DNA from: Alphaproteobacteria bacterium
Lineage (GTDB): Bacteria; Pseudomonadota; Alphaproteobacteria; SHVP01
Length of the DNA stretch: 64,000 nucleotides
Direction: 5' to 3'
NCBI GenBank assembly: GCA_947473325.1
Contig: CANJEJ010000004.1
Span: 4,060-68,059, forward strand
Below the pieces are notes generated by a model that was given only the letters and a program-made list of their open reading frames with translations, had not been told where the DNA came from and did no database searches. Below are positions 1,988 to 34,379 of this stretch, in pieces; the first letter of the stretch is position 1; every line of letters starts with the position of its first letter. The position numbers were made by a program, and so were the translations under genes.

Positions 1988-2205
1988 CGGGAATCTCCGT
2001 GGATACAATCTGCTGCCAGCCAGTCTGGGACGGGAGAGCGCCAAAGGCAAACGCCAGAAAATGTCCAAGGCTTGGGCAATGGCCTGCCCGGCCGCCTCAG
2101 GATCACAATTTCGTGAGCAGAAAAAGGGTATACTGTCTCGCCGCTGGCCTATTCTGTCGCCCAGGCGGCCCGGTGGCCACAAACACGAAAAAACGGGAGG
2201 AAACG
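1988..2205. promoter_or_regulatory. divergent promoter region between the methyltransferase and the family-5 substrate-binding gene
   Basis: A 218-bp non-coding gap lies between divergent starts. A GGGAGG SD sits 5 nt before the ATG at 2206. Confidence 0.4.
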
Positions 2206-3750
2206 ATGAGGAAACAGACCCCCGCGCGATTCGCGCGCCTGGCCCGCCTTGCCGGCACCACCGCGCTCGCAGCCATCGCCGTCGCGGGCCTGGCGAGCCA
2301 GCCCGCCGCCGCCCAGCAGAAGACGCTGCGGATTTCGGCCTATGGCATTCCGCAGGGCCAGGGCAATCCCCACACCTCGACCGGCTCGCGCCCGACCATC
2401 TGGTGGTGGGCGCCGCTGTATGAGATGCCCAGCTTCATGGACGAAAAGGGCAACACGACGCCCTACCTGGCGACGAGCTGGGAAGCGCAGGGCAAGGACA
2501 CCTGGATCCTGAAGCTGCGGCCCAACGTCACCTTCCACAACGGCCAGCCCTTCAACGCCGAGGCGATGGCCGAGGTGATCAACTTCATCACCAGCGAAGA
2601 CGGCAAGAAGTTCCCCGTCTATGGCGAGATGCGCACGATGGTGGCGGCCCGTGCCGTCGACCCGCTGACCGTCGAGATCAAGACCTCGGAACCCGATGCC
2701 ATCCTGATCAAGAAGCTCGGCGTCCTGCGCGTCGTCGAGCCCAAGGCGTGGAAGGAAATGGGGCCGGCGGAATTCGCCAAGAAGCCGGTCGGCACCGGCT
2801 CGTTCCGCGTCACCAACTGGGGCGTCGATCGCGTGCAATACGCGGCCTTCGACAAGTCCTGGCGCAAGCCGAAGGTCGATGCGATCGAGTATGTCGGCAT
2901 CGAGGAAACCACCTCGCGCAACCAGGCCTTCCTGTCGGGCCAGGTCGACCTCGCGCTCGCGCTCAACCTCGACAACAAGCAGGCGGTGGAACGCGCCGGC
3001 GGGAAACTCGAGGCCTTCGCCATTCCGTCGGCCTGGGCAATGCCCTTCATCGTCACCGCGCCCGGCCCGCACCAGGACGTGCGGGTGCGCCGCGCGCTGA
3101 ACTACGCCGTCAACAAGCAGGCCTTCATCGATTCACTGCTCGGCGGCGCCTCCGCCGTGGTCAGCCAGCCGGCGACGCAGGGCACCTCGGGCTACCAGTC
3201 CGACATCAAGCCGTATGAATACGACCCGGCCAAGGCCAAGCAGCTTCTCGCCGAAGCCGGCTATGCCAATGGCTTCGAGATAACGGCGGCGATCACCAAC
3301 CAGGGCGGGCTTGGCGATATCTACCAGTGGGTGGCGCAGGACGTCGGCAAGCTGGGCGTCAAGATCCAGCTGCAGGAAATGCCCATCCAGGAGTTCACCC
3401 GCCGGCTGTTCAAGCAGACGCCCTGGGCGGCGACCATCTTCGGCATCGACTACGGCTCGTCGCCGACCATCGACGCGCTGCGCTCGATCAACTCGCTGCA
3501 TTCCTGCAAGTTCTTCAACGCGCATTACTGCGACCCGGATATCATGCCCACGATCGACGCCGCCAACCAGGAGTTCGACCCGGCGAAGCGCGCGCAGCTC
3601 GTGGCCCAGATCATGCGCCACTATCACGAGCAGGCACCGGCGATCTTCCTGCATGAGGTGCGCCAGTATGACGGCGTCGGCGCCAAGGTGCGCAACTACA
3701 AGCCGGTCAACATGATCATCAACTATCACGAGATCGATCTGGCGAACTGA
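2206..3750 (+). CDS. ABC transporter substrate-binding protein, family 5 (DppA/OppA-like), orphan
   Basis: The product begins MRKQTPARFARLARLAGTTALAAIAVAGLASQPAAAQQ, a signal peptide. Length (514 aa) and composition match family-5 binding proteins. A GGGAGG SD precedes the start. Confidence 0.85.
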   Translation: MRKQTPARFARLARLAGTTALAAIAVAGLASQPAAAQQKTLRISAYGIPQGQGNPHTSTGSRPTIWWWAPLYEMPSFMDEKGNTTPYLATSWEAQGKDTWILKLRPNVTFHNGQPFNAEAMAEVINFITSEDGKKFPVYGEMRTMVAARAVDPLTVEIKTSEPDAILIKKLGVLRVVEPKAWKEMGPAEFAKKPVGTGSFRVTNWGVDRVQYAAFDKSWRKPKVDAIEYVGIEETTSRNQAFLSGQVDLALALNLDNKQAVERAGGKLEAFAIPSAWAMPFIVTAPGPHQDVRVRRALNYAVNKQAFIDSLLGGASAVVSQPATQGTSGYQSDIKPYEYDPAKAKQLLAEAGYANGFEITAAITNQGGLGDIYQWVAQDVGKLGVKIQLQEMPIQEFTRRLFKQTPWAATIFGIDYGSSPTIDALRSINSLHSCKFFNAHYCDPDIMPTIDAANQEFDPAKRAQLVAQIMRHYHEQAPAIFLHEVRQYDGVGAKVRNYKPVNMIINYHEIDLAN

Positions 3751-14836: not shown

Positions 14837-16278
14837 TCAGGTGCCGCAGAAGGTCTGGTACGCGCCGGGTTCCGCGGGGTTGGGTTCGGTGTAGGCCGCA
14901 AGCCCCGCCCGCTCGACATAGGGCAGCGCCAGCACGTCGAGCAGCCGGTGCAGGGGCTGCAGGTCACCGCCCGCCACCGCCGCGTCCAGCGCCGCCTCGA
15001 CCTGATGATTGCGCGGAATGTAGACCGGATTGGCCTGCCGCATCAGGTCGCGCGACGCTTCGATCGCCCCGGCACCCTGGGCCCGCCGCGCCTGCCAGCG
15101 GTCGTGCCAGGGGCGAAGGCCCTCGACCGGCAGGTCTCCCCGCGAGAGTGCGCGGAACGTGTTGGTGTAATCGGCGCCCTGCGCCTGCATACCGGCGAGC
15201 AGGTCCGCGGCCAGCGCCGCATCGCCGGCATCCTCGCCCAGGAGGCCGAGCTTGCGCCGCATCATGGCGAGCCAGCGCGCCTCATAGAGATCCTGGAACG
15301 CACGCAGCGCCGGCTCGGCCCGTTCGACCGCCTTGTCCGGATCCTCATGGATGAGCGGCAGCAGGGTTTCGGCAAAACGGGCCAGATTCCACTGGGCGAT
15401 GCGGGGCTGGCGGCCAAAGGCATAGCGACCGCCCTGGTCGATGGAGCTGAAGACAGTGGTCGGATCATAGGCGTCGATGAAGGCGCAGGGGCCATAGTCG
15501 ATGGTCTCGCCCGAGATCGTCATGTTGTCGGTGTTCATCACGCCATGGACGAAGCCGACGCGCATCCAGTCGACGACCAGGCTGGCCTGGCGGTCGACCA
15601 CGGCGCGCAGCAGCGCCAGCGCCGGCGCGTCGGTGTCGCGGCACGCCGGGTAGTGACGGTCGATGGCGTGGGTGACGAGTGCACGCAGCGATTCGATGTC
15701 GCGATGGGCGGCGGCAAATTGGAAGGTGCCGACGCGCAGGTGGCTTGCCGCCACACGCGTGAGCACGGCACCCGGCTGCGTTTCTTCGCGATACACCGGC
15801 TCGCCGGTCGCGACCACGGCCAGGCTGCGGGTGGTGGCAATTCCCAGCGCATGCATCGCCTCGCTGATGACATATTCGCGCAGCATCGGCCCGAGCGCCG
15901 CACGCCCGTCGCCGCGGCGCGAATAGGGCGTCGGGCCCGATCCCTTGAGCTGGATGTCGAAGCGCCGGCCGTCCGGTGCGATGTGCTCGCCAAGCGCAAT
16001 GGCGCGGCCATCGCCCAGCACGGTGAAATGCCCGAACTGGTGCCCGGCATAGGCCTGCGCGATCGGCATGGCACCGTCGGGCACCATGTTGCCGGCGAAG
16101 AGCGGCGCCAGGCCGTCGGCCGCCGTGCCCGCCTCGAGCCCCAGCGTGTCGGCCAGCGCATGGTTGAAGATCACCAGGCGCGGCGCGCGCACCGGCGTCG
16201 GCCGCTGGCGCGAGAACAACGCCTCGGGCAGGCGGGCATAGCTGTTGTCGAAGTGCCACCGCAGAGCCGACATCGGCA
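14837..16278 (-). CDS. selO: protein adenylyltransferase SelO (YdiU/UPF0061)
   Basis: About 480 aa. The product begins MSALRWHFDNSYARLPEALF and contains AQAYAGHQFGHF, HGVMNTDNMTISGETIDYGPCAF and PVYIPRNH, diagnostic SelO motifs. Confidence 0.9.
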
Positions 16279-16314
16279 TGTCATCCTTCCCGCCAGTATT
16301 CCGCCACGGGGACG

Positions 16315-16570
16315 GTCCGTAGGAACATACTTGGTCCGCCTCGCCAGCCCTCCCCATACTCGCGTCTTTTCTAACAAATCTTCGCTGCCAATCTACATTC
16401 CGGGCATTCCCCGCGCTGTTTGCCTGTTTCGGACTGGCGAACGGAGCGCGGACATGACGGTGCTCGCAGCACAGCGTCACAAGATGACAACACTGGTCAG
16501 CACGGCAGTTGGCCTCGCAATCCTCGTCATCAACACAGCCAGCACGGCGGCGCCAGCGCAAGGGAAGGTG
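16315..16570 (+). repeat. copy A of a ~256-bp duplicated block (promoter/5'UTR plus signal peptide of a family-5 substrate-binding protein); copy B is at 27328-27583
   Basis: Direct alignment by eye gives about 80% identity over 256 bp. This includes a 19/19 match over TTTTCTAACAAATCTTCGC and GGACATGACGGTGCT...AGCGTCACAAGA. The copies diverge right after AAGGGAAGGTGC. Confidence 0.7.
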
Positions 16571-16729
16571 CCGGCATGGTCGAGCGAGGGCGACAGCGGG
16601 GGCGACTCAACCGGCCGCTGGTGTCCCAATACGCAAAAAAGCCCCGCCAAATCGGCGGGGCGAGGAAGGTGCCGATTCGTATGGGGTATGAAGCGGCAGC
16701 AACATTCTGCTTCTGCCTCTTGCTTGTGA
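16454..16729 (+). pseudogene. truncated N-terminal fragment of a family-5 substrate-binding gene (signal peptide only, then unrelated frame)
   Basis: MTVLAAQRHKMTTLVSTAVGLAILVINTASTAAPAQGKV matches the N-terminus of the 27475 gene. The downstream 50 aa is low-complexity and has no binding-protein body. Confidence 0.5.
16633..16661 (-). terminator. rho-independent terminator with no obvious upstream gene on its strand
   Basis: On the minus strand it reads GCCCCGCC-GATTT-GGCGGGGC followed by TTTTTTGCG. Confidence 0.4.
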
Positions 16730-16925
16730 GTACGAACAATAGTGCCGCACCCAGAAGGGAAGCATGGTGTTGGATGCATAGCTGCCCAACACTGTCTGCC
16801 CCATGCGCGGAGGATTGCCTTGGCCCGGGCCACTGCGCCCGGCAGTTGGCAATAACCAAGCCCCCCTATCGTTTGTTACATTGCCCGGACGTCAATGCAT
16901 CAAGGTTCCCAAGGCTCACTCATCC

Positions 16926-17801
16926 ATGCCGAAGCCAATTCCCCATATCGCCGTCATCGACACCATGGTCAACATGATGACCCCGGAGGCGCTCAAGACG
17001 CAGCCTGACGACCGTCAGGAGTTCTTCGTGGACAAGATCGGTGTCGATACAGAAACCTATCGCGGCATCACGATTGGCGACCTGCTGCAACGCATGGACT
17101 CTGCCGGGGTGGAACGCAGCTTTCTGATCGCGTCCCGTGCCGGAGCAGCCCACGTTTCCCATTCACATCACGTCCCCTATGAACTTGTGGTGGAGGCAGT
17201 GAAGCAGCATCCGGATCGCTTCTCCGGCATTGCCGGGATCGATCCGACCATGGGCCGGAAGGGTGTCGTCGAGTTGCAGCGCGCGATTGAAGACCAGGGT
17301 TTTGTCGGCGCTCACTTCTACCCACACTGGTTCGAACTGCCACCCGACCATGCGCGGTGGTACCCGTTCTATGCCAAATGTGTCGAGCTCGACGTGCCAG
17401 TCCAGCTGCAGGTGGGCCAGTCGATGATCTATTCACCGAATTATCGCCTGCGTACCGTCGGTCAGCCGATCACGCTCGACGCCGTGGCCTGCGACTTCCC
17501 CGAACTGAAGCTGATCGGCAGCCATGTCGGCATCCCATGGACTGGCGAGATGATCGCCATGGCCTGGAAGCACGCCAACGTCTTCATCATGTCGGACGCA
17601 CATGGCCCGAAGTACTGGCCGAAGGAATTCGTCCACTACATCAACACCTATGGCCAGGACAAAGTCATGTTCGCGAGCGGCTTCCCCGTGCTCGGATTCG
17701 AACGGACGCTGCAGGACATTGCCGATCTGAACCTCCGCCCAGAGCCTTTGTACAAGTTTCTGCGCGGGAACACCGAACGGCTCTACCGGATCAGGCACTA
17801 G
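16926..17801 (+). CDS. amidohydrolase-2 family metal-dependent hydrolase
   Basis: 291 aa from the ATG at 16926 (MPKPIPHIAVIDTMVNMM). The HxH-like start and GAHFYPHWFE / FASGFPV motifs are typical of the ACMSD-like family. Confidence 0.7.
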   Translation: MPKPIPHIAVIDTMVNMMTPEALKTQPDDRQEFFVDKIGVDTETYRGITIGDLLQRMDSAGVERSFLIASRAGAAHVSHSHHVPYELVVEAVKQHPDRFSGIAGIDPTMGRKGVVELQRAIEDQGFVGAHFYPHWFELPPDHARWYPFYAKCVELDVPVQLQVGQSMIYSPNYRLRTVGQPITLDAVACDFPELKLIGSHVGIPWTGEMIAMAWKHANVFIMSDAHGPKYWPKEFVHYINTYGQDKVMFASGFPVLGFERTLQDIADLNLRPEPLYKFLRGNTERLYRIRH

Positions 17802-17948
17802 GTGATAGCCGGCCCCTTCGCCGATGTATTGCGACGGGACGCCGCCATGAAATTGATGTGAGGTTCTTGCAAGGAACCCGACAATCCTGGCTCCGGTTTT
17901 CACACGTCGCGAGGCGGGTCGTTTGCGGTGATCGAAGGGGGCGGCGAC

Positions 17949-18608
17949 ATGAAGTTTGGCGTGCTAGGGACGGGAATGGTCGGCCGGGCTATCGCCAGCA
18001 AGCTGGTATCGCGCGGCCATCATGTGATGATGGGCGCGCGTGCGCGCGGCAACATACCGGCAACGGAATGGGCGGCGGCCGCGGGCAACAATGCACGAGC
18101 CGGAAGCTTTTCCGAGGCAGCGTCCTTTGGCGATATTCTCTTCAACTGCGTGCATGGCGCCCACACGCTGGAAGCGCTGGAGGCGGCCGGCCACGACGCG
18201 TTGCGCGGGAAAATTCTGATCGACATTGCCAATCCCATGGACTACAGCCAGGGTGATCCGCCGTTGCTCCTGTACTGCAACGACGACTCGCTGGGCGAGC
18301 GCATCCAGCGCGCCTTTCCGGAAGTTCGCGTGGTCAAGACGCTGAACACCGTGGGCTTTCCCTCGATGGTCGATGGCACGCGCATTCCCGGCGAACACGA
18401 CATGTTCGTCTGCGGCAACGATGTGGCGGCGAAAGCCGAGGTCAGCCTGCTTCTGCGCGAGGAGTTCCGCTGGTCAAACGTAATCGATCTTGGCAACATT
18501 TCCTCGGCGCGGGCGACGGAAATGCTGATGCCATTGTTCCTTCGTCTCTGGAAGACGCTTGGCACATTCGACTTCAACATACAGGTGGTGGTGAAGCCGA
18601 AGGCTTAG
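17949..18608 (+). CDS. NAD(P)-binding oxidoreductase (F420-dependent NADP reductase / ProC-like Rossmann domain)
   Basis: The product begins MKFGVLGTGMVGRAIASKLVSRGHHV, a GxGxxG Rossmann motif at the N-terminus. Confidence 0.6.
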   Translation: MKFGVLGTGMVGRAIASKLVSRGHHVMMGARARGNIPATEWAAAAGNNARAGSFSEAASFGDILFNCVHGAHTLEALEAAGHDALRGKILIDIANPMDYSQGDPPLLLYCNDDSLGERIQRAFPEVRVVKTLNTVGFPSMVDGTRIPGEHDMFVCGNDVAAKAEVSLLLREEFRWSNVIDLGNISSARATEMLMPLFLRLWKTLGTFDFNIQVVVKPKA

Positions 18609-18634
18609 CCACCCAGGGTGGACCCCGTGGGGCG

Positions 18635-19762
18635 CTATTTCCGGCCCACCACCATATAACCCGCGCCGCCAATCACGCTGACGCCCCGGCTCAGGTTCTC
18701 GCTCGTGTAGGCGTGCCGCACCTGGTCGGGACGCCAGCCGGCTTCCACGGCCCATTCCGTCAGATCGGAAGCGCGCATCTTGCTGATGAATGGTTCCGCA
18801 TTGAATTGCGTGTCCCAGTCGGGAACAACGCGTTCCAGGGGCGTCAGGTCGCGGAAAGGCGTGCCGTCGTTGTGCACCATCAAACCACCCGGCTTCAGGA
18901 TGCGGAGGGACTCCGCAAAGATATTGTGCAAGGCCGCGGTCGAGGTTTCGTGGATCATGGCGTGCGAGGCAACGATATCGAAGTGGTTGTCCGGAAAACC
19001 GGTCCGTTCGGCGTCCTGCTGGCTGAAGTGGATGTGCCGGCCCAGGGCCTCTGCACGCGCATGGCCATACCGCAGGCAGGGGGCCGCGACATCGATGCCA
19101 TAAATCTCGGCATCCGGGTATTCGTCCACCCAGGCGACCGTCGACTGGCCAATCGTACAGCCCATCTCCAGGATGCGCCTGGGCTTGAGCTGCGGGTGGC
19201 TTCGCTTCACCCACTGCGCCACGTCCTTCCCCAGCCTGTCCATCACGGGTCCTAGCAACCCGGCGGTGTTGAGGTAGGTGGTGCGATCATATTCGGCGCC
19301 GGCAAAAACGTCGTCGGCCGTGAGCTCCGTGTGATAGCCACCCGGCTTGCAGTGAATCTCGATCTCCGTGTTGTAGCGCGGGGCCTTCACATCGGGGGCA
19401 AGCTGCAGGGATCCGATCTTGCGATTGGAGGACCGGTACTTCCTGGCCTTTTCGATCAGGTCCGGCAATTGCCTCTCGACCGCGGGACCGACCGCTTCGC
19501 AGGTGAATTCGCGTGCGATGCGGCGCAGGCTTGACCACATCTGGCCATAGGGGTGCTTCAGGATGCGGCGGCGCTGCTCCACAACCTGCTTCAGGGACGC
19601 CGGCGTGCCCTCGGTGTCGCAGAGCGGCTTGAGCCCGCCCTGGAGCCGAAAGTTGATGTCCTGAATGTAGCTCTGCACGAACAGCTGATAGGCAAGCTCG
19701 TCGTGGTTCACGTCCATCATCATGTCGTGCTGGTGCTGGCCGGCGATGGATCCAGTCTTCAT
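18635..19762 (-). CDS. class I SAM-dependent methyltransferase, paralog 3
   Basis: Trimmed to the ATG at 19762, which has a GAGGTG SD. It shares MWSSLRR, KIGSLQL, EIEIH.KPGGYH, ILEMGCTIGQST, LRYGHARAEALG and HFSQQDAE with paralogs 1 and 2. Confidence 0.75.
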   Translation of the reverse strand: MKTGSIAGQHQHDMMMDVNHDELAYQLFVQSYIQDINFRLQGGLKPLCDTEGTPASLKQVVEQRRRILKHPYGQMWSSLRRIAREFTCEAVGPAVERQLPDLIEKARKYRSSNRKIGSLQLAPDVKAPRYNTEIEIHCKPGGYHTELTADDVFAGAEYDRTTYLNTAGLLGPVMDRLGKDVAQWVKRSHPQLKPRRILEMGCTIGQSTVAWVDEYPDAEIYGIDVAAPCLRYGHARAEALGRHIHFSQQDAERTGFPDNHFDIVASHAMIHETSTAALHNIFAESLRILKPGGLMVHNDGTPFRDLTPLERVVPDWDTQFNAEPFISKMRASDLTEWAVEAGWRPDQVRHAYTSENLSRGVSVIGGAGYMVVGRK

Positions 19763-19895
19763 GGGGACACCTCGATCTGGCAGGAATTGGCCAAGTATCG
19801 GCCAGCTTCTGAACTCAGGCAATGTTGTCGCTTAGGGTATATGGTCCCCGGTGCCCGGGAGTGCGGGCAGCTGAACACCGCGGGTATGTTGCACC

Positions 19896-20348
19896 ATGAG
19901 CCATCGCCTTGCCCTGATTGTGTTCGTCGTGCTTGTTGTCGGTGGCGGCCTCGTCATCGGCTATCTGACAGCGCCGGGCGACTGGTACGCCGCCCTCGAG
20001 AAGCCCTCGTTCAATCCGCCGAGCTGGGTGTTCGCGCCGGCCTGGACCCTGCTCTATGTCGCCATCGCCATCGCGGGCTGGAGAGCCTGGAAGAGCGACA
20101 GCCCCCGATGGCCCATGAGACTTTGGTGGACTCAGCTCGCTCTGAACTTCCTCTGGTCACCCGTGTTTTTCGCCGCCCATCGGATCGGGCTCGCGCTGCT
20201 CGTCATCAGCTTGCTGCTCGCCACCATCCTTGCGTTCATCGCCGTGTCCTGGCGGCAGGATCGCGTTGCGGCCTGGCTGTTTGCGCCCTATGCCGCGTGG
20301 GTATCCTTCGCCTCGCTGCTGAACGCATCAATCCTAGCGCTGAACTGA
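19896..20348 (+). CDS. tspO: TspO/MBR family tryptophan-rich sensory protein
   Basis: 150 aa with 5 TM helices and a W-rich sequence (WYAALEKPSFNPPSWVFAPAWTLLY...). Confidence 0.85.
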   Translation: MSHRLALIVFVVLVVGGGLVIGYLTAPGDWYAALEKPSFNPPSWVFAPAWTLLYVAIAIAGWRAWKSDSPRWPMRLWWTQLALNFLWSPVFFAAHRIGLALLVISLLLATILAFIAVSWRQDRVAAWLFAPYAAWVSFASLLNASILALN

Positions 20349-20465: not shown

Positions 20466-22010
20466 TCAGCCGTCGATGGACATGGCTTCGTAGTGAATGA
20501 TCTTGTTCCAGTTCTTGTAGCCCTTCACACGCTTGGCGACGCCGGTCACGTCGAAGCCTTCATTCAGCGGCAAGGCCATCGCTTCGTCATGCTGGCGCTG
20601 CATCAGCTCCTGCAGGATGGCGAGGCGCTTCTTCACATCCATTTCCTTCTCCTGTGCCTGGATGAGGGGCGTCAGAGACGGAATGCAGGTGAACGTGTTG
20701 GGAAGGTTGCACCCGTAGACGGAGTAAGGGATCGAGGCGTCCATCATCGGCGAGAAGAACATCGCGAACGACGTCAGATCCCCAGCCCAGCTGTTGCCGT
20801 TGAATCGCTTGGACCTTTCCGCGAACGGCATCACCTGGACGCTGACATTGATCCCGACCCGCTTGAGATCGTCCGCCATGATCTGGAGGATGTCGCTGGC
20901 ACCGCTGGTCACTGCCGTTGTTTCCATCAGTAGCGTCAGTCCGTTCGGGTGGCCGGCATCCGCCAAGAGCTGCCTGGCCTTCGCCGGATCATAGGGATAG
21001 GGCTTTACATTCGGGTTGTAGCCGAAGGTAGAGGGCGTGGCCGGCTGTGCTGCGGCAGGCGCCATGCCTTTCAGATAGTCCTTCGACAATGCCTCGCGGT
21101 TGATTGCGTAGTTGGCGGCCTGGCGGACACGCTTGTCAGAGAACGGTGCCTTTCCGCCCCACTTCTTGGCGAAGTCCTCGGTGAACAAGCCGACGGCGGA
21201 CACGAAGGGCGCGCCTTCGACAGCCGCGACATGGCCCGCCGCGCGAACTGCGGGAACATCGTCGGGGCCAAGATTGAAGGAGACATCGACTTCGTTGGAG
21301 ATGAGGGCTGACAGCCGTGTCGCCGCCTCCGGCACGTTGAGGATGCGCAGGTTTCTGGTCTTGGCCGGACGCCAGCTCTTGCTGAATGCGGTCGCCGTCA
21401 TTTCCTGGTCCGTCCAGGACTGCACCTGGAATGGGCCGGACGTCACGGGTTTCACCGAGAATGCCGCGACCCCCATTTCGGTAAACGCTGCCATGTCCAC
21501 CACATAGAACGCCGCCAGCTTGGGCACGAACAGCGGGTCTGGTTCAGCGGTCACAAACTCCACGGTCTGGGGCCCGATCGCCCGATAACTTGCAAGCTTC
21601 ATGTTGCGCATGATTCCGGCGCCCTTGGCCGGCTCGGAATGCAAGTACTTAAAGGCCTTGACCACGTTGGCGGCATCGTTCATCCGGCCGCTGCCAAATG
21701 CGATATCGCTGCGAAATGTCATGCGCCACGTCGTCGGGTTTACCAGTTCCCAACTTTGCGCGGCGAAGGGCAGGATCTGCGCCTTGTCGTCGATCCGGAC
21801 GAACGAATCGAACACGCCTTCCCACCAATAGTTGTGGGGCCAGATGTACTGAATGCCATAGACGTTTCCGCGTGGCGTCGCCTGCTGATACATCGCGACA
21901 CGAAGCGTCTCCTTCGCCCCGTCCTGGGCATGTGCGACAGACACTGGCAGAAGCGTGCCAAGGCTTGCCATGGCGCCCAACAACCATCCAACCGGTGTAT
22001 TTCTCGTCAT
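20466..22010 (-). CDS. ABC transporter substrate-binding protein, family 5, orphan
   Basis: Trimmed to MTRNTPVGWLLGAMASLGTLLPVSVAHAQ (signal peptide). The fold-typical length is 514 aa. Confidence 0.8.
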   Translation of the reverse strand: MTRNTPVGWLLGAMASLGTLLPVSVAHAQDGAKETLRVAMYQQATPRGNVYGIQYIWPHNYWWEGVFDSFVRIDDKAQILPFAAQSWELVNPTTWRMTFRSDIAFGSGRMNDAANVVKAFKYLHSEPAKGAGIMRNMKLASYRAIGPQTVEFVTAEPDPLFVPKLAAFYVVDMAAFTEMGVAAFSVKPVTSGPFQVQSWTDQEMTATAFSKSWRPAKTRNLRILNVPEAATRLSALISNEVDVSFNLGPDDVPAVRAAGHVAAVEGAPFVSAVGLFTEDFAKKWGGKAPFSDKRVRQAANYAINREALSKDYLKGMAPAAAQPATPSTFGYNPNVKPYPYDPAKARQLLADAGHPNGLTLLMETTAVTSGASDILQIMADDLKRVGINVSVQVMPFAERSKRFNGNSWAGDLTSFAMFFSPMMDASIPYSVYGCNLPNTFTCIPSLTPLIQAQEKEMDVKKRLAILQELMQRQHDEAMALPLNEGFDVTGVAKRVKGYKNWNKIIHYEAMSIDG

Positions 22011-22110
22011 TGCATTCTTTCCTTCCGCCTTCGTTTTTACGTACAAGATGCCTACCGTGTGGGTGTCGATGCGAAACTGCAACGGCGTCTTCAGCTTTGA
22101 TTTCTGGATG

Positions 22111-23526
22111 TCAGAATTGGGCCGCGAGTTCGCGGACGTCGCCTACTTGATCAATTCGCCAGAGTGCCTTCAGGAGCTGGCGGGCTCGGGTCTCCGGCAT
22201 GGACAGCGACGTGGATTCGCAGAACTTTTGTTCGACACTGTCCTTCGACATCGGTCGATCCGCCCCGCCCTCGGTCTCGCCAAGCGTGCATTCCGAGACA
22301 TGGGTTTGGTGGGCAACCCGGACTTCCGCGCTTCCCTTCACATCTGGGCGACGAAATTCCCGGTACGCGACCGTGGCGTCCTTGTCTTCAATGACATGGA
22401 CAGACGCAGCGATGCGCCGGCTCAATGGATCCTGGAGCCTGTCCTGGCTCAGCCATTTTGGTCCCGGCGGGATACCCTGGAGAACCATCGCGGCAGCCCA
22501 TTGCAGGGAGTAAGCGGCCTGCTCCCAGGACTCCGGGTCTGGCTCAAACTGGTGTGGCACGGTGGCCACGCCGGGCACACGCAAGGTTATCGCAGAGACG
22601 GCGTCGGCATCGATGGAGTGCGTCCGAACTAGCTCACGCAGTGCCTGGATTGCGCCCTGTGCCGGACGCGCGCAGGGCCATGGCTTGAGCTCCATCTGTC
22701 TGACGACATGGAAGGGCGTGGGCCCGCCCGTCAAGATCTCCGGGTCGTAGTCCGCCGCATGTTCGTCAACTTCATCCGCCACGCTTGAGAACCCGTGGCT
22801 CACCATGAGGGCCGCCTGGATTCCCGCCCGCGCGTGAAACAGTGGCGTCGCCAGCTCGCCGGGCGTGCCCAGGGGCGAGACACGCTTGCGCCGGAACAAG
22901 GGAGTCGAATTCCCCGGTCGCGACCCGGATCGCGCGCGATGCGGCAGCTCCCAGGCCAGACTGATCGTTCGGGCTGTCTCGTCTGTATCTTGTCCGAGCA
23001 GCCGCGCCGCGATCGCGGCGGCCACGACGCGATGATGCGGCAAGCCATTTTCGACGCGTTGTGCGAAATGGAACCGGCTGCCCAGCACATATCCAAGCAC
23101 AGCGGCGGCGAGCACCGCCCGTCCCGTTGCGCTCACGCGTTGTCCCACGGCCAGGGCTGTGTGGACGCAAAGCGGCCCGAGATGACGGCCCGGGCCGCTT
23201 TCCTCGAAATTCGTCATCCGGCAGTGCTGGCCGTTCACGCCCGCCGCCATTTCGGCCGGGACTCGTGCGCCATCACCAATCAGGACGGCATCCGCGCGAC
23301 CGCCGAGGTCGCGTGCATAGCCAAAGAGCGCCGGTCCGCTCAGCGCCGCACCCATGTAGGTAATTCCGACATGATCAACGAACAGGCCCGTGAAGCTTTC
23401 TATCGCAAACCCGGGAATTGCTTCGACCGGCGTTGTCGCCATCTCGCGCGCCAATTTCCGGGTCAGGGATTCTTGCAATCCAGGGTTCATCGAGACGCCC
23501 ACAATTGACTGGCCGCTACGGAGCAT
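22111..23526 (-). CDS. MmgE/PrpD family protein, paralog 1
   Basis: DHVGITYMGAA, NFEESGPG.H.GPLC.HTALAVGQRV and AAAIAARLLGQD are shared with the paralog at 24371. The start is uncertain. Confidence 0.8.
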   Translation of the reverse strand: MLRSGQSIVGVSMNPGLQESLTRKLAREMATTPVEAIPGFAIESFTGLFVDHVGITYMGAALSGPALFGYARDLGGRADAVLIGDGARVPAEMAAGVNGQHCRMTNFEESGPGRHLGPLCVHTALAVGQRVSATGRAVLAAAVLGYVLGSRFHFAQRVENGLPHHRVVAAAIAARLLGQDTDETARTISLAWELPHRARSGSRPGNSTPLFRRKRVSPLGTPGELATPLFHARAGIQAALMVSHGFSSVADEVDEHAADYDPEILTGGPTPFHVVRQMELKPWPCARPAQGAIQALRELVRTHSIDADAVSAITLRVPGVATVPHQFEPDPESWEQAAYSLQWAAAMVLQGIPPGPKWLSQDRLQDPLSRRIAASVHVIEDKDATVAYREFRRPDVKGSAEVRVAHQTHVSECTLGETEGGADRPMSKDSVEQKFCESTSLSMPETRARQLLKALWRIDQVGDVRELAAQF

Positions 23527-24370: not shown

Positions 24371-25777
24371 GTGGTGTCCCCTACTGGATCTGGCGGCAAC
24401 CCCGATCTCGCGCCCGGCGATCACGTGACCGGGGCGCTCGCGGCAGAGATTGCGAACACGCCGTTCGACTCGATTCCCGCCACCGCCCTGGCGGCGGCCA
24501 AGCGTCTACTGATCGACCACGTCGGGATTACATACATGGGCGCGGCCTTTACGGGTTCGGCGCTGCACGCCTATGCGCGCGAAGTCGGCGGTCGGCCGGA
24601 AGCTGTCCTGATCGGGACTGATCTGCGCGTGCCCGCGGAACTCGCGGCAGGGATCAACGCGCAGGTCTGTCGAAACACGGATTTCGAGGAGACCGGGCCC
24701 GGCACGCATGTCGGGCCGTTGTGCTTACACACCGCGTTGGCCGTCGGGCAGCGCGTGGGTGCATCGGGCAGGGCGGTGCTTGGGGCCATTGCACTTGGCT
24801 ATGCCTTGTGTGCGCGATTTCACTTCGCGCGCGGTTCGGATTGGCCGCGTACCAGCATGGTTCACCACAGAACGGTCGCGGCGGCCATCGCCGCGCGGCT
24901 GCTCGGCCAGGATGCGGAAACGACAGCACGCACGTTGAGCCTCGCTTGGGAGATTCCGCCACGAACCCATCAAGCGGGTGGTGTTGAATTCATGCACAAG
25001 CGGATTTCTCCGCTGGCATTGTCTTCCGGAGTCGGCGCGCCCCTGTTTGGCGCACGTCACGGCGTCCAGGCAGCCGTTATGGCGCAGCTCGGATTCGAAA
25101 GCGTACCCGCTGAAATTGACCATCACCTGAAAGGATACGACCTCGATATTCTGGCCGGTGGCCCGCCCCCCTTTCACCATGTCGATGGACAGATGGAACT
25201 CAAGCCATGGGTTTGCAGCCGCCATTGTCAGTGCGGGATCCAGGCCCTTGCGAATCTGGTTCGAACCCATGCGATCGACGCGCGCGAGGTAAGAGGCTTG
25301 CGTCTGCGCCTTTCCAACATGTACCAGCGCGCCTGGCTGAATGAGCCCGCGCCGCAGTCATACTGGCAGGCGATCTATTCGACGCAGTGGGCTGCCGCCA
25401 TGGTCGTTCAGGGAATCCCGGCCGGACCCAGGTGGGTGACACCGGAACGCCTGGCCGATCCCTTCTCGCGGGACCTGGCGGCCAAGATCGAGATCACGGA
25501 GGATCCCGTAGCCTCCCAGGCCTATTGGGATCTCGACTGGCTGTCGATTCGCGGCACCGCGGAAATTGATGTCGGTGGAAAAACCTATCAGGCGATCTGC
25601 ACCATGCGTGAAACCTGGGGCAGCCCAGGGATGGACATGCCGGATTCCGTCGCCAGGGAGAAGTTTATGGAATGCACATCCATGTCACGGCCGGCGGCGC
25701 CACCGAGCGAACTGTTTGAAGCGCTCGACCGCATAGAGATATGCGGCAACGTGAACGAGATCGCGGCGCTTATGTGA
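24371..25777 (+). CDS. MmgE/PrpD family protein, paralog 2
   Basis: 468 aa. GTG start with an AGGAG SD. Motifs as for paralog 1. Confidence 0.8.
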   Translation: MVSPTGSGGNPDLAPGDHVTGALAAEIANTPFDSIPATALAAAKRLLIDHVGITYMGAAFTGSALHAYAREVGGRPEAVLIGTDLRVPAELAAGINAQVCRNTDFEETGPGTHVGPLCLHTALAVGQRVGASGRAVLGAIALGYALCARFHFARGSDWPRTSMVHHRTVAAAIAARLLGQDAETTARTLSLAWEIPPRTHQAGGVEFMHKRISPLALSSGVGAPLFGARHGVQAAVMAQLGFESVPAEIDHHLKGYDLDILAGGPPPFHHVDGQMELKPWVCSRHCQCGIQALANLVRTHAIDAREVRGLRLRLSNMYQRAWLNEPAPQSYWQAIYSTQWAAAMVVQGIPAGPRWVTPERLADPFSRDLAAKIEITEDPVASQAYWDLDWLSIRGTAEIDVGGKTYQAICTMRETWGSPGMDMPDSVAREKFMECTSMSRPAAPPSELFEALDRIEICGNVNEIAALM

Positions 25778-26942: not shown

Positions 26943-27327
26943 TCAGTTGATCTCTATCAAGTGAAGCACCCCAGCCGCTGGAGGTGGGGGTAGCGGGCCG
27001 CGATGAGCTGGCACCGTCCATTAGGGGCTACCACTTCAGACGGAGAATGCTAAACGCTCTCTGCCCAAGACATCTTATGCCGGCCGAGCTAGACGGAACG
27101 CGAGCGACATCAGTACCCCAACTCGGATCTTATGGGGACCGTGCTGAAGAAGGAGCAGGTGGCCCGAGGTGCCCGTGCGTGATCTAGCGATGCCCTCCCT
27201 CAAGTCCTTCAGGCTGAGTCTGAATGTTGCTGTCGGGCAATTTGTTATGCGAAAGAATTAGCGATTGGCTGCAATCAGCATGGCTCGCAGCATGGTCAGT
27301 CCCTTCCAACCGATGGCGAATGGGTGA

Positions 27328-27583
27328 TCCGTAGGAAACTGCCTGGTCCTACTTGCCAGTCCGCCACCATACTCACGTCTTTTCTAACAAATCTTCGCAG
27401 CAAATCTACGTTCCCGACATTCCCGGCACTGCTAGCGTATTCGCCTGTTTCGGACAGTCGAACGGGAGGCGGACATGACGGTGCTTGCATCACAGCGTCA
27501 CAAGACGACAAATCTGGTAAGCGCGGCAATTGTTCTCGCAGCCCTCGTCATCAGCACGGCGGCGCAGGCGCAAGGGAAGGTGC
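27328..27583 (+). repeat. copy B of the duplicated block (functional promoter/5' end of the substrate-binding gene)
   Basis: See the feature at 16315-16570. Confidence 0.7.
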
Positions 27584-29040
27584 TGCGTGTCGGCGCGACC
27601 CAGATGCCGCCGACGCGCGGCAATGTCTATGGCGGCACGGGCGCCCCCAGCACCGTCCTGTGGGCCGCCACCTTTGATTGGGTCACGACACTCGACGAAA
27701 AAAGCGTGACCCGCCCGTCCCTGGCGGAAAGCTGGGCCCTGACGGAAGCGAAGAACTGGCGCTTCAAGATGCGGCCAAACGCAACTTTCTGGAACGGCAG
27801 GCAGGTGACCGCCCAGCACGTGGCAGACGGGCTCAACTACCTGCTGTCGGAGGAAGGCCGCAAGACCAATGTCAGCGGCCATTTCCGCATTGCAGGTGTG
27901 ACAGGAGCGAAGGCAATCGACCTAATGACGGTTGAGGTGAGCACGAGCAATCCGTCCCCACTCATTCCCGCGTATATGGCGGTTCTGCCCGTTATCGACA
28001 TGCAGCACTTCAACGACGTGGGTATCGAGACCTTCGCCACCCAACCCATGGCTTCCGGCCCCTTCCAGATGGATGGCTGGTCAACCAATGGTGCGAAGGT
28101 GAAGGCATTCAAGGCCTATTGGCGCGGGGTGCCACGCATTGACGCGATCGAGTTCACCGAGATCCCGGAGAGTTCCTCACGGGTCAACGCGCTGGTATCC
28201 AAGCAAATAGACATCGACAACGCCGCCCAGCCTGATTCCTTCGCTGCAGTGAAGGCGGCCGGCGGCAAGATTTTCTTCGGGCCTACCGCGCGTATCCAGG
28301 GGATTTCCTTCGTCACCGCCCCGATGGCCGACAACCGGGGCGACAAATCTCATTTCCGCGACAAACGCCTCCGCCAGGCGGCGAACTACGCTGTCAACAA
28401 GCAGCAGATGCTCGACACGATCTTTGAAGGTCAGGGTGCCATCAACTCGCAAGCCGGCACGGTCAATTCCTACGGCTACAACCCGAAGATAAAGCCCTAT
28501 CCCTATGACCCCGCCAAGGCGAAGGCGCTTATGGCCGAGGCCGGCTATCCGAACGGGTTCGACTTCATCATCGAGGCGCGCACCGACGATCCTGTCGCCA
28601 AGCTTATGTATGAAGCGATGGTGGAGGACCTGACGAAGGTCGGTCTGCGCGCCAAGCTGCACTCCATCCCCTTTGCGCAGCAACTCAAGAACTTCGGCGC
28701 CGGTACCTGGGAAGGCGAAGGGTTCGGCATTGGCTACAATGTCACGCCAACCATGGACGTGAGCGCGACGTTCAGGCTGGGTTCCTGCCTGAAGACGCCG
28801 CCGGTCTCGGTTTACTACTGCGACAAGGAGGAAACCGAGCTGGTACTTGCCGCCAACAGCGAATTCGACCCGGACAAGCGGCTGGCAATCCTGCATCGCC
28901 TTCTCGAAGTGAACCACGAGAACGCGCCGGTTCTGATGCTTCTTGAAGTGCCATCAATGATGTCATACGGGCCGCGGGTGCGAAACTTCACCACGCTCAA
29001 CGAGAGCATCGACTATTTCGGAGTTGACCTCGCCAACTGA
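27475..29040 (+). CDS. ABC transporter substrate-binding protein, family 5, orphan
   Basis: A GGGAGG SD precedes it. The product begins MTVLASQRHKTTNLVSAAIVLAALVISTAAQAQGKV (signal peptide). 521 aa. Confidence 0.85.
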   Translation: MTVLASQRHKTTNLVSAAIVLAALVISTAAQAQGKVLRVGATQMPPTRGNVYGGTGAPSTVLWAATFDWVTTLDEKSVTRPSLAESWALTEAKNWRFKMRPNATFWNGRQVTAQHVADGLNYLLSEEGRKTNVSGHFRIAGVTGAKAIDLMTVEVSTSNPSPLIPAYMAVLPVIDMQHFNDVGIETFATQPMASGPFQMDGWSTNGAKVKAFKAYWRGVPRIDAIEFTEIPESSSRVNALVSKQIDIDNAAQPDSFAAVKAAGGKIFFGPTARIQGISFVTAPMADNRGDKSHFRDKRLRQAANYAVNKQQMLDTIFEGQGAINSQAGTVNSYGYNPKIKPYPYDPAKAKALMAEAGYPNGFDFIIEARTDDPVAKLMYEAMVEDLTKVGLRAKLHSIPFAQQLKNFGAGTWEGEGFGIGYNVTPTMDVSATFRLGSCLKTPPVSVYYCDKEETELVLAANSEFDPDKRLAILHRLLEVNHENAPVLMLLEVPSMMSYGPRVRNFTTLNESIDYFGVDLAN

Positions 29041-30576: not shown

Positions 30577-31554
30577 CTAGTGGAGGTGACACGCCGCTCG
30601 ATGCCCCGGTGCGATCTCGCGATATTGAGGCTCCTCCACGAAACATTTCTTGAAGGCGAAAGGGCAGCGGGTGTGAAAACGACAACCTGGCGGCAACTTA
30701 ACCGCCGATGGAAGCTCCCCAGAGAGAATGATTTCGTCCGTCTTCTCTCCCGGCCGGATCGTCAGGGCGGCAGAGATCAGGGCCTTGGTATAGGGATGCT
30801 GCGGGTTGCGGAACAATTCTTCTGAGTCGGCCTCTTCCACGATGCGCCCCAGATACATCACGGCCACCCTGTCGCTGAGATAGCGCACGGTAGCCAGGTT
30901 GTGCGCGATCAGGAGATAGCTGATTCCGCGCGATGCCTGAATGTCCCTGAGCATGTTCATGATCTGGGCCCCGATCGACACGTCGAGCGCCGAAACCGGC
31001 TCGTCCAGTACGACCACCTGAGGATCGAGGGCAAGGGCTCGCGCGACAGCCACGCGCTGGCGCTGGCCGCCGCTGAATTCATGGGGAAAATTCGCGGCAG
31101 AGGCAGGATCCAGTCCCACGCTCACCAGCAAGGACCTGACGCGCTCGTCAATCTCCGGCCGCGATAGCGCGGTGTTGACAGCGAGAGGCTCGCCGATGAA
31201 CCGGGCCGTCCGCATACGCGGGTTCAGCGAACTCCAGGGATCCTGAAACACCGCCTGAACCGCGCCGCGGTAATCGCGCAGCCGCTGGCCTGTCAGGCTG
31301 GAAAGCTCTTGCCCGCGAAAGCGCATGCTCCCCGCGGTCGGGGCCTCCATCATCAACGTCATCTTGGCCGTGGTGGTCTTGCCGCAACCGGATTCGCCCA
31401 CCAAGCTCAGGGTTTCCCCCGCGCGGACCGTGAATGACACATCGTCCACCGCATGCACCCAGGCCTTGGCCGAACTGAAGGGAATGCGAGAGCGCACCGG
31501 AAAGTATTTCTTCACGTGGCTGGCCTCGAGCAGGGTGTCGCTCTGTCCGCTCAT
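30577..31554 (-). CDS. ABC transporter ATP-binding protein (DppF/OppF-like)
   Basis: Walker A is GESGCGKTT; the signature is FSGGQRQRVAVARA; Walker B is VVLDEPVSALD. A GGAGG SD is present. An ATGA overlap links it to the upstream ATPase. Confidence 0.85.
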   Translation of the reverse strand: MSGQSDTLLEASHVKKYFPVRSRIPFSSAKAWVHAVDDVSFTVRAGETLSLVGESGCGKTTTAKMTLMMEAPTAGSMRFRGQELSSLTGQRLRDYRGAVQAVFQDPWSSLNPRMRTARFIGEPLAVNTALSRPEIDERVRSLLVSVGLDPASAANFPHEFSGGQRQRVAVARALALDPQVVVLDEPVSALDVSIGAQIMNMLRDIQASRGISYLLIAHNLATVRYLSDRVAVMYLGRIVEEADSEELFRNPQHPYTKALISAALTIRPGEKTDEIILSGELPSAVKLPPGCRFHTRCPFAFKKCFVEEPQYREIAPGHRAACHLH

Positions 31555-32570
31555 GCATGCCTCCAGCAGCGCACCGTCTGGTCTTGCGCCAGACGTATCT
31601 CCGACGGGTATTCGACCCGGCAGCGATCCATCACATGAGGACACCGGGGAGCGAATGCGCAACCCTGCGACAGCGCGAAGATCGACGGCGGCTGGCCTTC
31701 GATCGACGCCAGCCGTTCCGTTTCGACCAGCACGTCGGGAACGGACCTCAGAAGCGCCTGCGTATAGGGATGGGCGGGCGACCGGAATAGCGTGGCGGTG
31801 CTCGCCTTTTCGACGATCTTGCCCGCATACATGACCGCTACCGTGTCGCACATGCGGGCAACGATGCCGAAGTCATGGGTCACGAACAGGATAGGAAAGC
31901 CCGCCTCCCGCTGCAGATCCTTGAGCAACTTGAGCAGCGCTGCCTGGACGGTGACGTCGAGCGCGGTGGTGGGTTCATCGGCCAGCAGCACCTCCGGTTC
32001 GCAGGAGAGCGCAATGGCGGATACGATCCGCTGGCGCATGCCGCCGCTGAGCTGGTGGGGATAACTGTTCAGCCGCCGCTCCGGATCCGATATGCGCAGT
32101 TTCTTCAGCAATTCGACGGCGCGCTGCCACAGCGTGCGGCCGCGAAGCCCTTGATGAAGCCTGAGCGTTTCCCCGACCTGGTCCTTGATCGTGAGCACCG
32201 GGTTGAGCGCGGTCATCGGGTCCTGCAGGACAATCGCGATGCGGCGCCCCCGCACCGTCCGCATCTCCGAATCGGTTTTCTGCAACAGATCTTCACCGCG
32301 CAGCAGGATCTGGCCGCCGACGATACGGGAGGCCGGTTCGGGATTGAGTCGCAGCACCGAGAGGCATGTCATGCTCTTGCCGCTGCCGGACTCACCTACC
32401 AGGCCCAGCGTCTCACCCCGCCGCAGATCGAAGCTGACGCCATCGACCGCCTTACCGACACCTCGCTTGGTATAGAGGTAGGTCTTCAGGTCGCGCACGC
32501 GCAACACGACATCGTCGTCGCGCGCCGGGGCCGCTGCGGATTCGAGGGATTGCGAATCGAGGATCGTCAT
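31551..32570 (-). CDS. ABC transporter ATP-binding protein (DppD/OppD-like)
   Basis: Trimmed to MTILDSQ. Walker A is GESGSGKS; the signature is LSGGMRQR. The first 113 aa of the track ORF overlap the permease in another frame and were rejected. Confidence 0.85.
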   Translation of the reverse strand: MTILDSQSLESAAAPARDDDVVLRVRDLKTYLYTKRGVGKAVDGVSFDLRRGETLGLVGESGSGKSMTCLSVLRLNPEPASRIVGGQILLRGEDLLQKTDSEMRTVRGRRIAIVLQDPMTALNPVLTIKDQVGETLRLHQGLRGRTLWQRAVELLKKLRISDPERRLNSYPHQLSGGMRQRIVSAIALSCEPEVLLADEPTTALDVTVQAALLKLLKDLQREAGFPILFVTHDFGIVARMCDTVAVMYAGKIVEKASTATLFRSPAHPYTQALLRSVPDVLVETERLASIEGQPPSIFALSQGCAFAPRCPHVMDRCRVEYPSEIRLAQDQTVRCWRHA

Positions 32571-32577
32571 CGACTTG

Positions 32578-33462
32578 CTACAGCGCCCGCAGCTTGGGAT
32601 CGAGCACATCGCGTGCCCAGTCGCCCAGGCTGTTGAAGGCCAGAACCACCGAGATGATCGCCAGCCCCGGCATCGCTGAAATCCACCACGCAGAATCGAG
32701 AAGGTTGCGGCCATCGTCCAGCATCCGGCCCCAGGTCGGCATGCTTTCAGGCACGCCAACGCCGAGGAAGGTGAGCGAGGATTCCGTGATGATGACGTTG
32801 CCGATCTGCAAGGTCGCCAGGACGATAATGGTGTTGGCCACGTTGGGCAGCAGATGCACGAAGATGATGCGCGCGGGCGAGCATCCAGCGATGCGGGCGA
32901 GCGCCACAAAATCGCGCTCCTTGAGCAGCAGCACCTCGCCCCGGATCAGGCGGGCGTAGCGCGCCCAGGACACGAGGCCGATCACCGCCACCACGGTCCA
33001 GAAGCTGGGGCCCGCCGTGACGCCAAACACCAGGGCCAGAAGCAGGGAGGGAAAGGCAAGCGTGCCGTCCACGATTCGCATGATGACGCTGTCTACGGTG
33101 CCGCCGGCATAGCCGGACACCAGGCCCATGACCGTGCCAATCACCACGCTGAGCACGACGCAGATAAACGCCACCGCCATGGAGACGCGTGCGCCCATGA
33201 TAAGGCGACTCAGGATGTCGCGGCCCTGGCGGTCGGTGCCGAGGGCATAGTCGAAGAGGCCGTCCTCCATGAAAGCCGGCGGCTTCTGCTGCAGGGCCAG
33301 GACGCCCATGTTGGGATCGTGCGGCGTCAGCACGGGTGCAAAGAGCGCCACCAGCAGCACAAGGACCACCATGGCGAGTGGAAGCTTAGGTGCATCCTTC
33401 ATCCAGCCAAAGGCACGCATTAGGGTCATGGGCTTGCTGGCCGGCAGGACACGTGCATCCAC
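32578..33462 (-). CDS. ABC transporter permease (DppC/OppC-like)
   Basis: 6 TM helices. The product starts MTLMRAF..KDAPKLPLAMVVLVLL. Confidence 0.85.
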   Translation of the reverse strand: MDARVLPASKPMTLMRAFGWMKDAPKLPLAMVVLVLLVALFAPVLTPHDPNMGVLALQQKPPAFMEDGLFDYALGTDRQGRDILSRLIMGARVSMAVAFICVVLSVVIGTVMGLVSGYAGGTVDSVIMRIVDGTLAFPSLLLALVFGVTAGPSFWTVVAVIGLVSWARYARLIRGEVLLLKERDFVALARIAGCSPARIIFVHLLPNVANTIIVLATLQIGNVIITESSLTFLGVGVPESMPTWGRMLDDGRNLLDSAWWISAMPGLAIISVVLAFNSLGDWARDVLDPKLRAL

Positions 33463-33464
33463 CG

Positions 33465-34379
33465 TCAGGCTCGGATGCGCGGGTCGAGCAGCGCATAGCT
33501 GACGTCGACCAGGAAATTCAGCCCGATGATCAGCGCGGCGAAGATCAGCACGCAGAATTGTACGAGCGGGAAATCACGCGACAGCACGGCATTGTAGGCG
33601 AGCCGGCCAAGGCCCGGCCAGGTGAACACCACCTCGGTCGTGATCGCGCCGGTCAGCAGCACGCCATAGGTCATGCCGATGATCGTCACCACCGGCACCA
33701 GCGCGTTGCGCAGCGCGTGCTTGAAGACCACCGTGCGTTTGCCGAGGCCCTTCGCCCGCGCGAGCTTGATGAACTCGCTGTCCAACACCTCGAGCATGCT
33801 GGAACGCAGGAGACGCGTCACCGATGCGGTGACGACCCAGCCGAGCGTGATGACGGGTAGCACGTAATGCGCCGGCCCACCCAGTCCGGACGTGGGCAAC
33901 CAACCCAGGGTGACCGAGAAGACAAGGATGAAGATGATGCCGACGGCGAAGGCTGGCAACGACTGGCCGAGAAGCGAGACCAGCATGGCGACGCGATCCG
34001 GCCATCGGCCGCGATTGGTCGCTGCGAGCACACCCAGGATGACTCCGACAACGGAGGAGAAGATGATGGCCGATGTCGCCAGCCACAGCGTGTTCAGCAG
34101 GGGCTGGCCCACGACATCGGTCACCGGCCGCCGGTAGCGGAAGGAGCGGCCGAAATCCCCCTGCGCCACATTCTGGAGATAGACCCAGTACTGGTGGGCG
34201 ATGCTGCGGTCGAGGCCCAACTCCTTCGACAGCGCCGCCAGTTCCTGGCTGCTCGCTTCCATCGGCATCAGGATGATGACGGGGTCGCCGCTTACCCGCG
34301 CGATCACGAAGACCGCGAGGCTCAGCAACCACAGCGTAATCAGTGCCTGCAGAAGGCGGCCCGCCACGAACCTCAGCAT
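33465..34379 (-). CDS. ABC transporter permease (DppB/OppB-like)
   Basis: The product begins MLRFVAGRLLQALITLWLLSLAVFV and contains an EAA-like loop (ARAKGL...). Confidence 0.85.
   Translation of the reverse strand: MLRFVAGRLLQALITLWLLSLAVFVIARVSGDPVIILMPMEASSQELAALSKELGLDRSIAHQYWVYLQNVAQGDFGRSFRYRRPVTDVVGQPLLNTLWLATSAIIFSSVVGVILGVLAATNRGRWPDRVAMLVSLLGQSLPAFAVGIIFILVFSVTLGWLPTSGLGGPAHYVLPVITLGWVVTASVTRLLRSSMLEVLDSEFIKLARAKGLGKRTVVFKHALRNALVPVVTIIGMTYGVLLTGAITTEVVFTWPGLGRLAYNAVLSRDFPLVQFCVLIFAALIIGLNFLVDVSYALLDPRIRA

Follow-up and report, generated by a model that had tools for sequence, protein, structure and literature searches.

An intergenic block at positions 16316-16571 of the window (the whole 64,000-nucleotide stretch of alphaproteobacterial DNA analysed here) duplicates the upstream region, 5′ leader and signal-peptide codons of an intact family-5 substrate-binding protein gene, and is probably a non-coding relic of a partial duplication, that is, an ordinary gene remnant. 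Its homology to the intact gene stops abruptly at both edges, nothing from the rest of the binding protein follows it, it lies at the boundary of a rearranged region, the reading frame that runs on beyond it has a non-coding composition, and the substitutions in its codons follow a near-neutral pattern. The block is referred to below as copy A, and the corresponding block at the head of the intact gene as copy B.

Copy A (16316-16571) and copy B (27328-27583) both lie on the plus strand, in direct orientation and 11 kb apart. Comparison of 16100-17000 with the window using blastn aligns them at 79.2% identity over 265 columns (E = 2e-63), or 85% if gaps are left out, and an alignment of both regions with MAFFT returns the same pair of intervals; a repeat search within the window also recovers the pair, as two gap-free pieces (D2 and D3). 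The duplication of about 80% identity described in the original prediction is therefore real, with an identity above background. The window holds only these two copies, their flanks have no homology to each other, and the rest of 16100-17000 produces only noise against the window (E above 0.001). In a refined global alignment, 115 of 138 upstream positions are identical (83.3%), with 10 gap columns and indels of 8 nt and 1 nt, and 95 of 109 positions are identical in the coding part (87.2%), where there is a single in-frame indel of 9 nt. Transitions and transversions over the whole block stand at 19:18. The upstream part is longer than the approximately 125 bp first proposed, measuring 139 nt in copy A and 147 nt in copy B, and the number of shared codons, put at 37, was close to the corrected values of 39 in copy A and 36 in copy B.

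Copy B constitutes the native upstream region, 5′UTR and signal peptide of an intact SBP_bac_5 gene (27475-29040, plus strand; Pfam 1.5e-66) encoding a 521-residue protein, as had been correctly recognised, and this gene is followed by Cupin_2 and Abhydrolase_1 (alpha/beta-hydrolase) genes identified by Pfam. Among its orthologues, the binding protein is closest to P0001, which is encoded at locus L014, shares about 90% amino acid identity with it and has the same genes downstream. The nucleotide alignment of L014 with the 27475 gene begins only at window position 27568, where the block ends, and the region upstream of the L014 binding-protein gene differs from the upstream region of copy B. 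At the protein level, the copy B signal peptide ends in AQAQ(G/E)KV in common with a second orthologue, P0002, and the shorter form AQ.KV is common to copy B, copy A, P0001 and P0002, which places the coding part of the block in this lineage of binding proteins. The block as a whole appears to be part of the same lineage, and copy A would have been derived either from copy B or from a lost paralogue of it.

The window contains five SBP_bac_5 genes in all (1999-3750, 20466-22082, 27475-29040, 34411-36051 and 36998-38578) and one complete ABC system. Permease and ATPase genes are present as a single set (30577-34379, minus strand), so that several of the binding proteins may share one transporter.

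Copy A retains only the beginning of a binding-protein gene, and its homology ends sharply after the 39 signal-peptide codons. A tblastn search of 16280-16925 matches residues 1-36 of the copy B protein (E = 7e-11), and 122 family-5 proteins searched against the same interval find nothing beyond residue 36 in any frame; no frameshifted remainder of the binding protein therefore follows the break. The relic signal-peptide codons (MTVLAAQRHKMTTLVSTAVGLAILVINTASTAAPAQGKV; 16454-16570, plus strand) retain a Sec-like shape and continue in frame into a 52-codon tail (16571-16729, plus strand) that is unrelated to the binding protein, giving an open reading frame of 91 codons (16454-16729). A truncated copy had been predicted here, as indeed it is, but with 92 residues and a 50-residue tail rather than 91 and 52.

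The composition of the tail is non-coding, with G+C fractions of 0.51, 0.72 and 0.64 at the first, second and third codon positions, set against a GC3 of 0.77-0.78 and a GC2 of about 0.4 in the real genes of this region; three-base periodicity is absent from the tail, and its GC2 exceeds its GC3. In 45% of cases, a random position and frame in the window is followed by 52 or more open codons (P = 0.45), and we infer that the 91-codon frame is an accident of high G+C content. The 14 substitutions within the shared codons fall 4/5/5 by codon position with a dN/dS of 0.75, a number of changes that gives little power; the pattern is near-neutral, and signal peptides are loosely constrained in any case. 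With so few changes, retention of a Sec-like shape is not evidence of selection. The Shine-Dalgarno sequence, as read from the sequence, is weaker in copy A (GGAG) than in copy B (GGGAGG).

Copy A lies between two divergent transcription units. To its left is selO (14837-16279, minus strand; Pfam SelO 2.4e-106), with its ATG at 16279 and a Shine-Dalgarno sequence, GGAAGGA, at 16284-16290; the edge of the block is 36 nt from the selO start codon. Copy A had been described as lying upstream of selO, and it does adjoin that gene, but selO is on the minus strand and the two are thus divergent. To the right, the first real gene is an Amidohydro_2 gene (16926-17801, plus strand; Pfam) whose start is set by a 100%-identical 291-residue database protein (P0241) and lies 355 nt past the block; it is followed by an F420_oxidored gene (17928-18608, plus strand; Pfam). 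None of the small open reading frames in the intergenic regions around copies A and B matches a Pfam family. The original prediction took account neither of the amidohydrolase operon to the right of copy A nor of the need for the selO promoter to be situated inside or beside the block.

A terminator scan identifies an intrinsic terminator on the minus strand at 16635-16661 (GCCCCGCC-GATTT-GGCGGGGC followed by U6), which is inside the tail of the 91-codon frame. The minus-strand fold from 16770 to 16625 has a z score of -3.4, and the minus strand of 16625-16800 folds beyond all shuffles (0/200) into several hairpins that end in a textbook terminator at 16661-16641 plus U6. There is no minus-strand gene upstream of this terminator, and the interval between copy A and the amidohydrolase gene could harbour a gene for a minus-strand small RNA.

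Comparison with related genomes places copy A at a rearranged site. The selO region of the window is 90.6% identical at the nucleotide level to that of its closest relative, L021, over 3.9 kb, with the homology stopping at the selO start codon, and homology to L022 likewise stops there. The block is missing upstream of selO in both L021 and L022; in L021 its place is taken by fragments of a transposase and of a dioxygenase, which implies that the same junction has been rearranged in that genome too. Positions 1-400 of L021 start with a fragment resembling an IS3-type transposase, and a 72-residue DIOX_N fragment is also present. The G+C content is 0.68-0.69 on the selO side and drops to 0.60-0.62 from 16.5 to 30.5 kb. 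Together, the end of synteny and the step in G+C content at selO put copy A on the border of a catabolic region that is rearranged and distinct in composition, and this 14-kb catabolic cluster may have a separate history. Upstream of the amidohydrolase relative at 69% identity there is a mechanosensitive-channel gene and no binding-protein gene, and the idea that a full binding-protein gene formerly preceded the amidohydrolase gene was set aside as unsupported on this ground. No related locus was found in a plasmid database.

The divergence between copies A and B (about 15%; Jukes-Cantor distance about 0.17) can be set against distances at four-fold sites of 0.25 between the window and L021 for selO and of 0.95 between the window and L014 for the binding protein. 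By this measure the duplication appears to have clearly post-dated the split from L014, and to be of about the same age as the split from L021 or more recent.

The source of copy A would be the 5′ end of the 27475 gene or of its lost paralogue, comprising upstream region, leader and signal-peptide codons. Two kinds of event could have put this fragment at its present site, 11 kb away and in direct orientation: a partial duplication, or duplication of a larger segment with subsequent deletion. The routes envisaged are direct copying of the patch, tandem duplication of ~11 kb with later deletion, and truncation of what had been a full paralogue. Both the order and the direction of the duplication events are given as we infer them. 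The resulting relic would then have been left in the intergenic gap that separates selO (minus strand) from the amidohydrolase operon (plus strand), where it may possibly retain some promoter activity toward either.

Several features count against a simple relic. The fragment has survived for ~0.17 substitutions per site without being deleted, it has an open Sec-like signal peptide and a sole coding indel that preserves the frame, its 3′ breakpoint lies immediately past the predicted signal-peptide cleavage site, and its most conserved stretches are an AT-rich run and the surroundings of the start codon. The position of the breakpoint right after the predicted cleavage site could be a hint of modular reuse.

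The AT-rich run comprises 23 identical nucleotides (16363-16385 in copy A, 27376-27398 in copy B, plus strand) and includes a 19-mer, TTTTCTAACAAATCTTCGC, present without mismatch at 16367-16385 and at 27380-27398; the two copies agree fully over GCCTGTTTCGGAC as well. Its AT-richness within a genome of 63% G+C fits a promoter or operator region, and the 23-nt run is a possible -35/spacer region or operator. The length of the run is unexceptional, however, as a run at least as long arises in 18% of shuffles of the matches and mismatches (permutation P = 0.18). When up to three mismatches are allowed, the 19-mer occurs in the window only in the two block copies and is therefore absent upstream of the other four family-5 genes (0/4), the kind of place where the original prediction had suggested searching for it. 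Exact scans of 185,579 species genomes (13 loci) and of JGI metagenomes (14 loci) give chance matches only: all 27 are in unrelated, mostly low-GC taxa, with similarity ending at 19-24 nt, and beyond these chance 19-mers no copies of the block were found in the public genome and metagenome collections. Conservation thus does not single out the 19-mer, and its promotion to a regulator-binding candidate on the strength of being strictly conserved is not borne out, although a regulatory role for it is possible.

A consensus scan finds no sigma-70-like site in copy A or copy B, the scan being weak for other promoter types, and matches to the sigma-54 and sigma-70 consensus sought by eye were both discarded as unconvincing. 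TTCTAA and CTACAT/CTACGT separated by 18 nt can loosely be read as possible -35 and -10 elements. The heptamer TTTGTTA/TAACAAA occurs four times in the 64 kb where 0.92 occurrences are expected (at 16372, 16872, 27241 and 27385), in every case within one or other of the intergenic regions where copies A and B lie. Each block contains one site, and the two extra sites, both on the plus strand, lie 48 nt upstream of the amidohydrolase ATG (16872-16878) and 81 nt left of the edge of copy B (27241-27247). The heptamer was chosen after seeing the data, and we treat it as a lead rather than a result, and a weak one at the two extra sites; no longer motif is shared around the four sites.

One alternative to a relic, which we consider possible but unlikely, is that copy A has been kept as a promoter/operator module placing the amidohydrolase/F420 oxidoreductase operon (16926-18608) under common control with the binding-protein/cupin/hydrolase operon, the signal-peptide frame being merely a translated leader. 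The amidohydrolase gene is the next real gene on the same strand, and the intervening hairpin carries its U-run on the minus strand only, so it should be an inefficient stop for plus-strand transcripts and transcription from copy A could reach that gene. The -150 to -50 regions are 83.9% identical over 87 nt, a level of similarity that falls within the mobile-promoter definition outlined in PMC3575422. The fairly long persistence of the fragment and the restricted distribution of TTTGTTA point the same way. Against such a role, neither copy contains a promoter-like site in the consensus scan, conservation is not higher upstream (83%) than in the coding part (87%), the identical run is of a length expected by chance, and only the heptamer itself is common around its extra sites. 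The relatives, moreover, show no link between this amidohydrolase and a family-5 binding protein, and no regulator gene adjoins either copy, the nearest one found being a LysR gene at 40954.

In a more specific version, the block would be a working promoter-operator cassette that ties the amidohydrolase/oxidoreductase operon, and perhaps selO, to the regulator of the binding-protein operon; TAACAAA/TTTGTTA would then be operator half-sites and the relic frame solely a translated leader. We rate this version as unlikely. If true, it would represent natural growth of a regulon by promoter copying, independent of insertion sequences, in an uncultured alphaproteobacterium. Surveys and experimental evolution have both documented the rewiring of regulons by copied promoters in which no insertion sequence takes part, but to our knowledge it has rarely been dissected in environmental bacteria.

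It is decidedly unlikely that the minus strand of the block supplies or contains the promoter of selO. The selO ATG is only 36 nt from the block edge, homology with the relatives stops at the selO start codon, and the terminator at 16661-16635 isolates selO and so confines its promoter to 16280-16635, most of which (256 nt) is block. The scan, however, finds no promoter-like site on the minus strand, and the minus strand of copy B faces the 3′ end of a plus-strand gene, where an antisense promoter would have no role; the selO promoter may instead sit in 16571-16635 or in the 36-nt spacer.

An assembly artefact, in which sequences from two populations would have been joined into a chimeric contig near 16.3 kb, is very improbable. 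The fall in G+C content from 0.68 to 0.61 at the selO start and the end of synteny with the closest relative at the same point would both accord with a join, as would L023, a 3-kb contig from the same population in another sample that is 99.87% identical to window positions 16925-19992 and begins at 16925. But the two copies, at only 79% identity, are not a duplicate made by the assembler, no long exact repeat that could cause a false join was seen in the window at 16280-16320, and the transposase debris at the same spot in L021 points to a site of biological rearrangement. The two breaks of L023, one base ahead of the amidohydrolase ATG and within the TspO gene, may correspond to junctions that vary among strains in that population.

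That copy A encodes a young secreted peptide of 91 residues, expressed from a recruited promoter and signal peptide, is scarcely credible: the ATG is intact with GGAG 7 nt upstream, the frame is open to 16729, and the signal peptide as read from the sequence retains a net charge of +2 over its first 11 residues, a hydrophobic core (best 12-residue hydropathy mean 2.57) and an A-x-A motif (APA, preceding QGKV), but the tail lacks periodicity and is open by chance, a minus-strand terminator hairpin lies within the frame, the signal-peptide codons show a near-neutral substitution pattern, the product matches no Pfam family, and an exhaustive HMMER search of 1.84 billion representatives yields no true homologue for it. 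The only three HMMER matches are multi-stretch low-complexity alignments to very long proteins. An exact-protein look-up finds no record of the 91-residue product, nor of the binding protein or SelO. The original prediction had left two readings side by side, a decaying remnant of a binding-protein gene duplication and a new small secreted product, and it is the decaying remnant that fits the evidence.

Three other classes of element were considered and set aside. A riboswitch or structured leader RNA was rejected given that Rfam reports nothing at the gathering threshold over the whole window and that the 5′UTRs fold no better than shuffled sequences (z = -0.87 for copy A and +0.80 for copy B); a relaxed Rfam search (E up to 5) of 16150-17000 yields only sub-threshold noise, and a two-sequence consensus fold of the leaders, with one compensatory pair, is uninformative. 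A MITE or other small mobile repeat was rejected on the presence of only two copies in the window and on block ends, TCCGTAGGAA and GGGAAGGTGC, that are not inverted repeats of each other. The copies were also rejected as attL and attR of an integrated island, being repeats of only 79% identity with no integrase-family match among the scanned open reading frames between them.

Two further sets of repeated sequences are present in the window. A 279-nt stretch occurs in three copies of 68-74% identity (4-282, 1127-1405 and 18917-19195), the second and third of which are covered by Pfam-confirmed methyltransferase genes (884-2182 and 18635-19822); the first is at the window edge, outside the Pfam scan. 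A methyltransferase gene is also located near a family-5 binding-protein gene in L014 and L015. Two paralogous genes of the MmgE/PrpD family, at 22111-23526 (minus strand) and 24371-25777 (plus strand), are divergently oriented with a GST gene between them, and contain an 85-nt inverted repeat of 75% identity (I3).

The importance of copy A is mostly slight. It does show clearly how partial duplication in G+C-rich DNA leaves a promoter and signal-peptide stub that resembles the open reading frame of a small secreted protein, and because the stub reads as a plausible secreted open reading frame, annotators and genome scans should not accept such frames at face value.

Among known systems, the activation of citT in the E. 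coli long-term evolution experiment, cited in PMC3575422, is a case of promoter capture by duplication. Copy A is similar in that a duplication puts the upstream region of one gene before other genes; it differs from citT, as described there, in that no benefit or change in expression is evident and the copies are old, at about 15% divergence.

A second comparison is with putative mobile promoters, or promoter reuse (Matus-Garcia, Nijveen and van Passel 2012; commentary PMC3575422), which according to the commentary are sequences sharing 80% or more identity across 50 nt or more within the -150 to -50 regions of two start codons in one genome. The block resembles these in the similarity of its upstream regions, in the unrelated real genes that follow its two copies, and in that no known mobile element is involved. 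It departs from them in that its homology extends into the first 36-39 codons, a situation that the 2012 survey excluded as paralogy, whereas adjacent coding sequences are required to be unrelated; and with the amidohydrolase start 355 nt past its end, the block lies outside the -150 to -50 region of that gene. As for secreted proteins, copy A does have a signal peptide of Sec type, but its would-be mature part has neither a coding signature nor a homologue.

The closest likeness is to a gene remnant or truncated paralogue. Copy A differs from a typical remnant in carrying a whole upstream region, in ending just past the cleavage site and in keeping its frame open. It is nevertheless homologous to the 5′ part of an intact gene of the same genome, loses that homology abruptly with the rest of the gene absent in all frames, is not conserved elsewhere as a gene and lies in a rearranged region of distinct composition, as is characteristic of such remnants; the near-neutral pattern of its few coding substitutions would fit as well.
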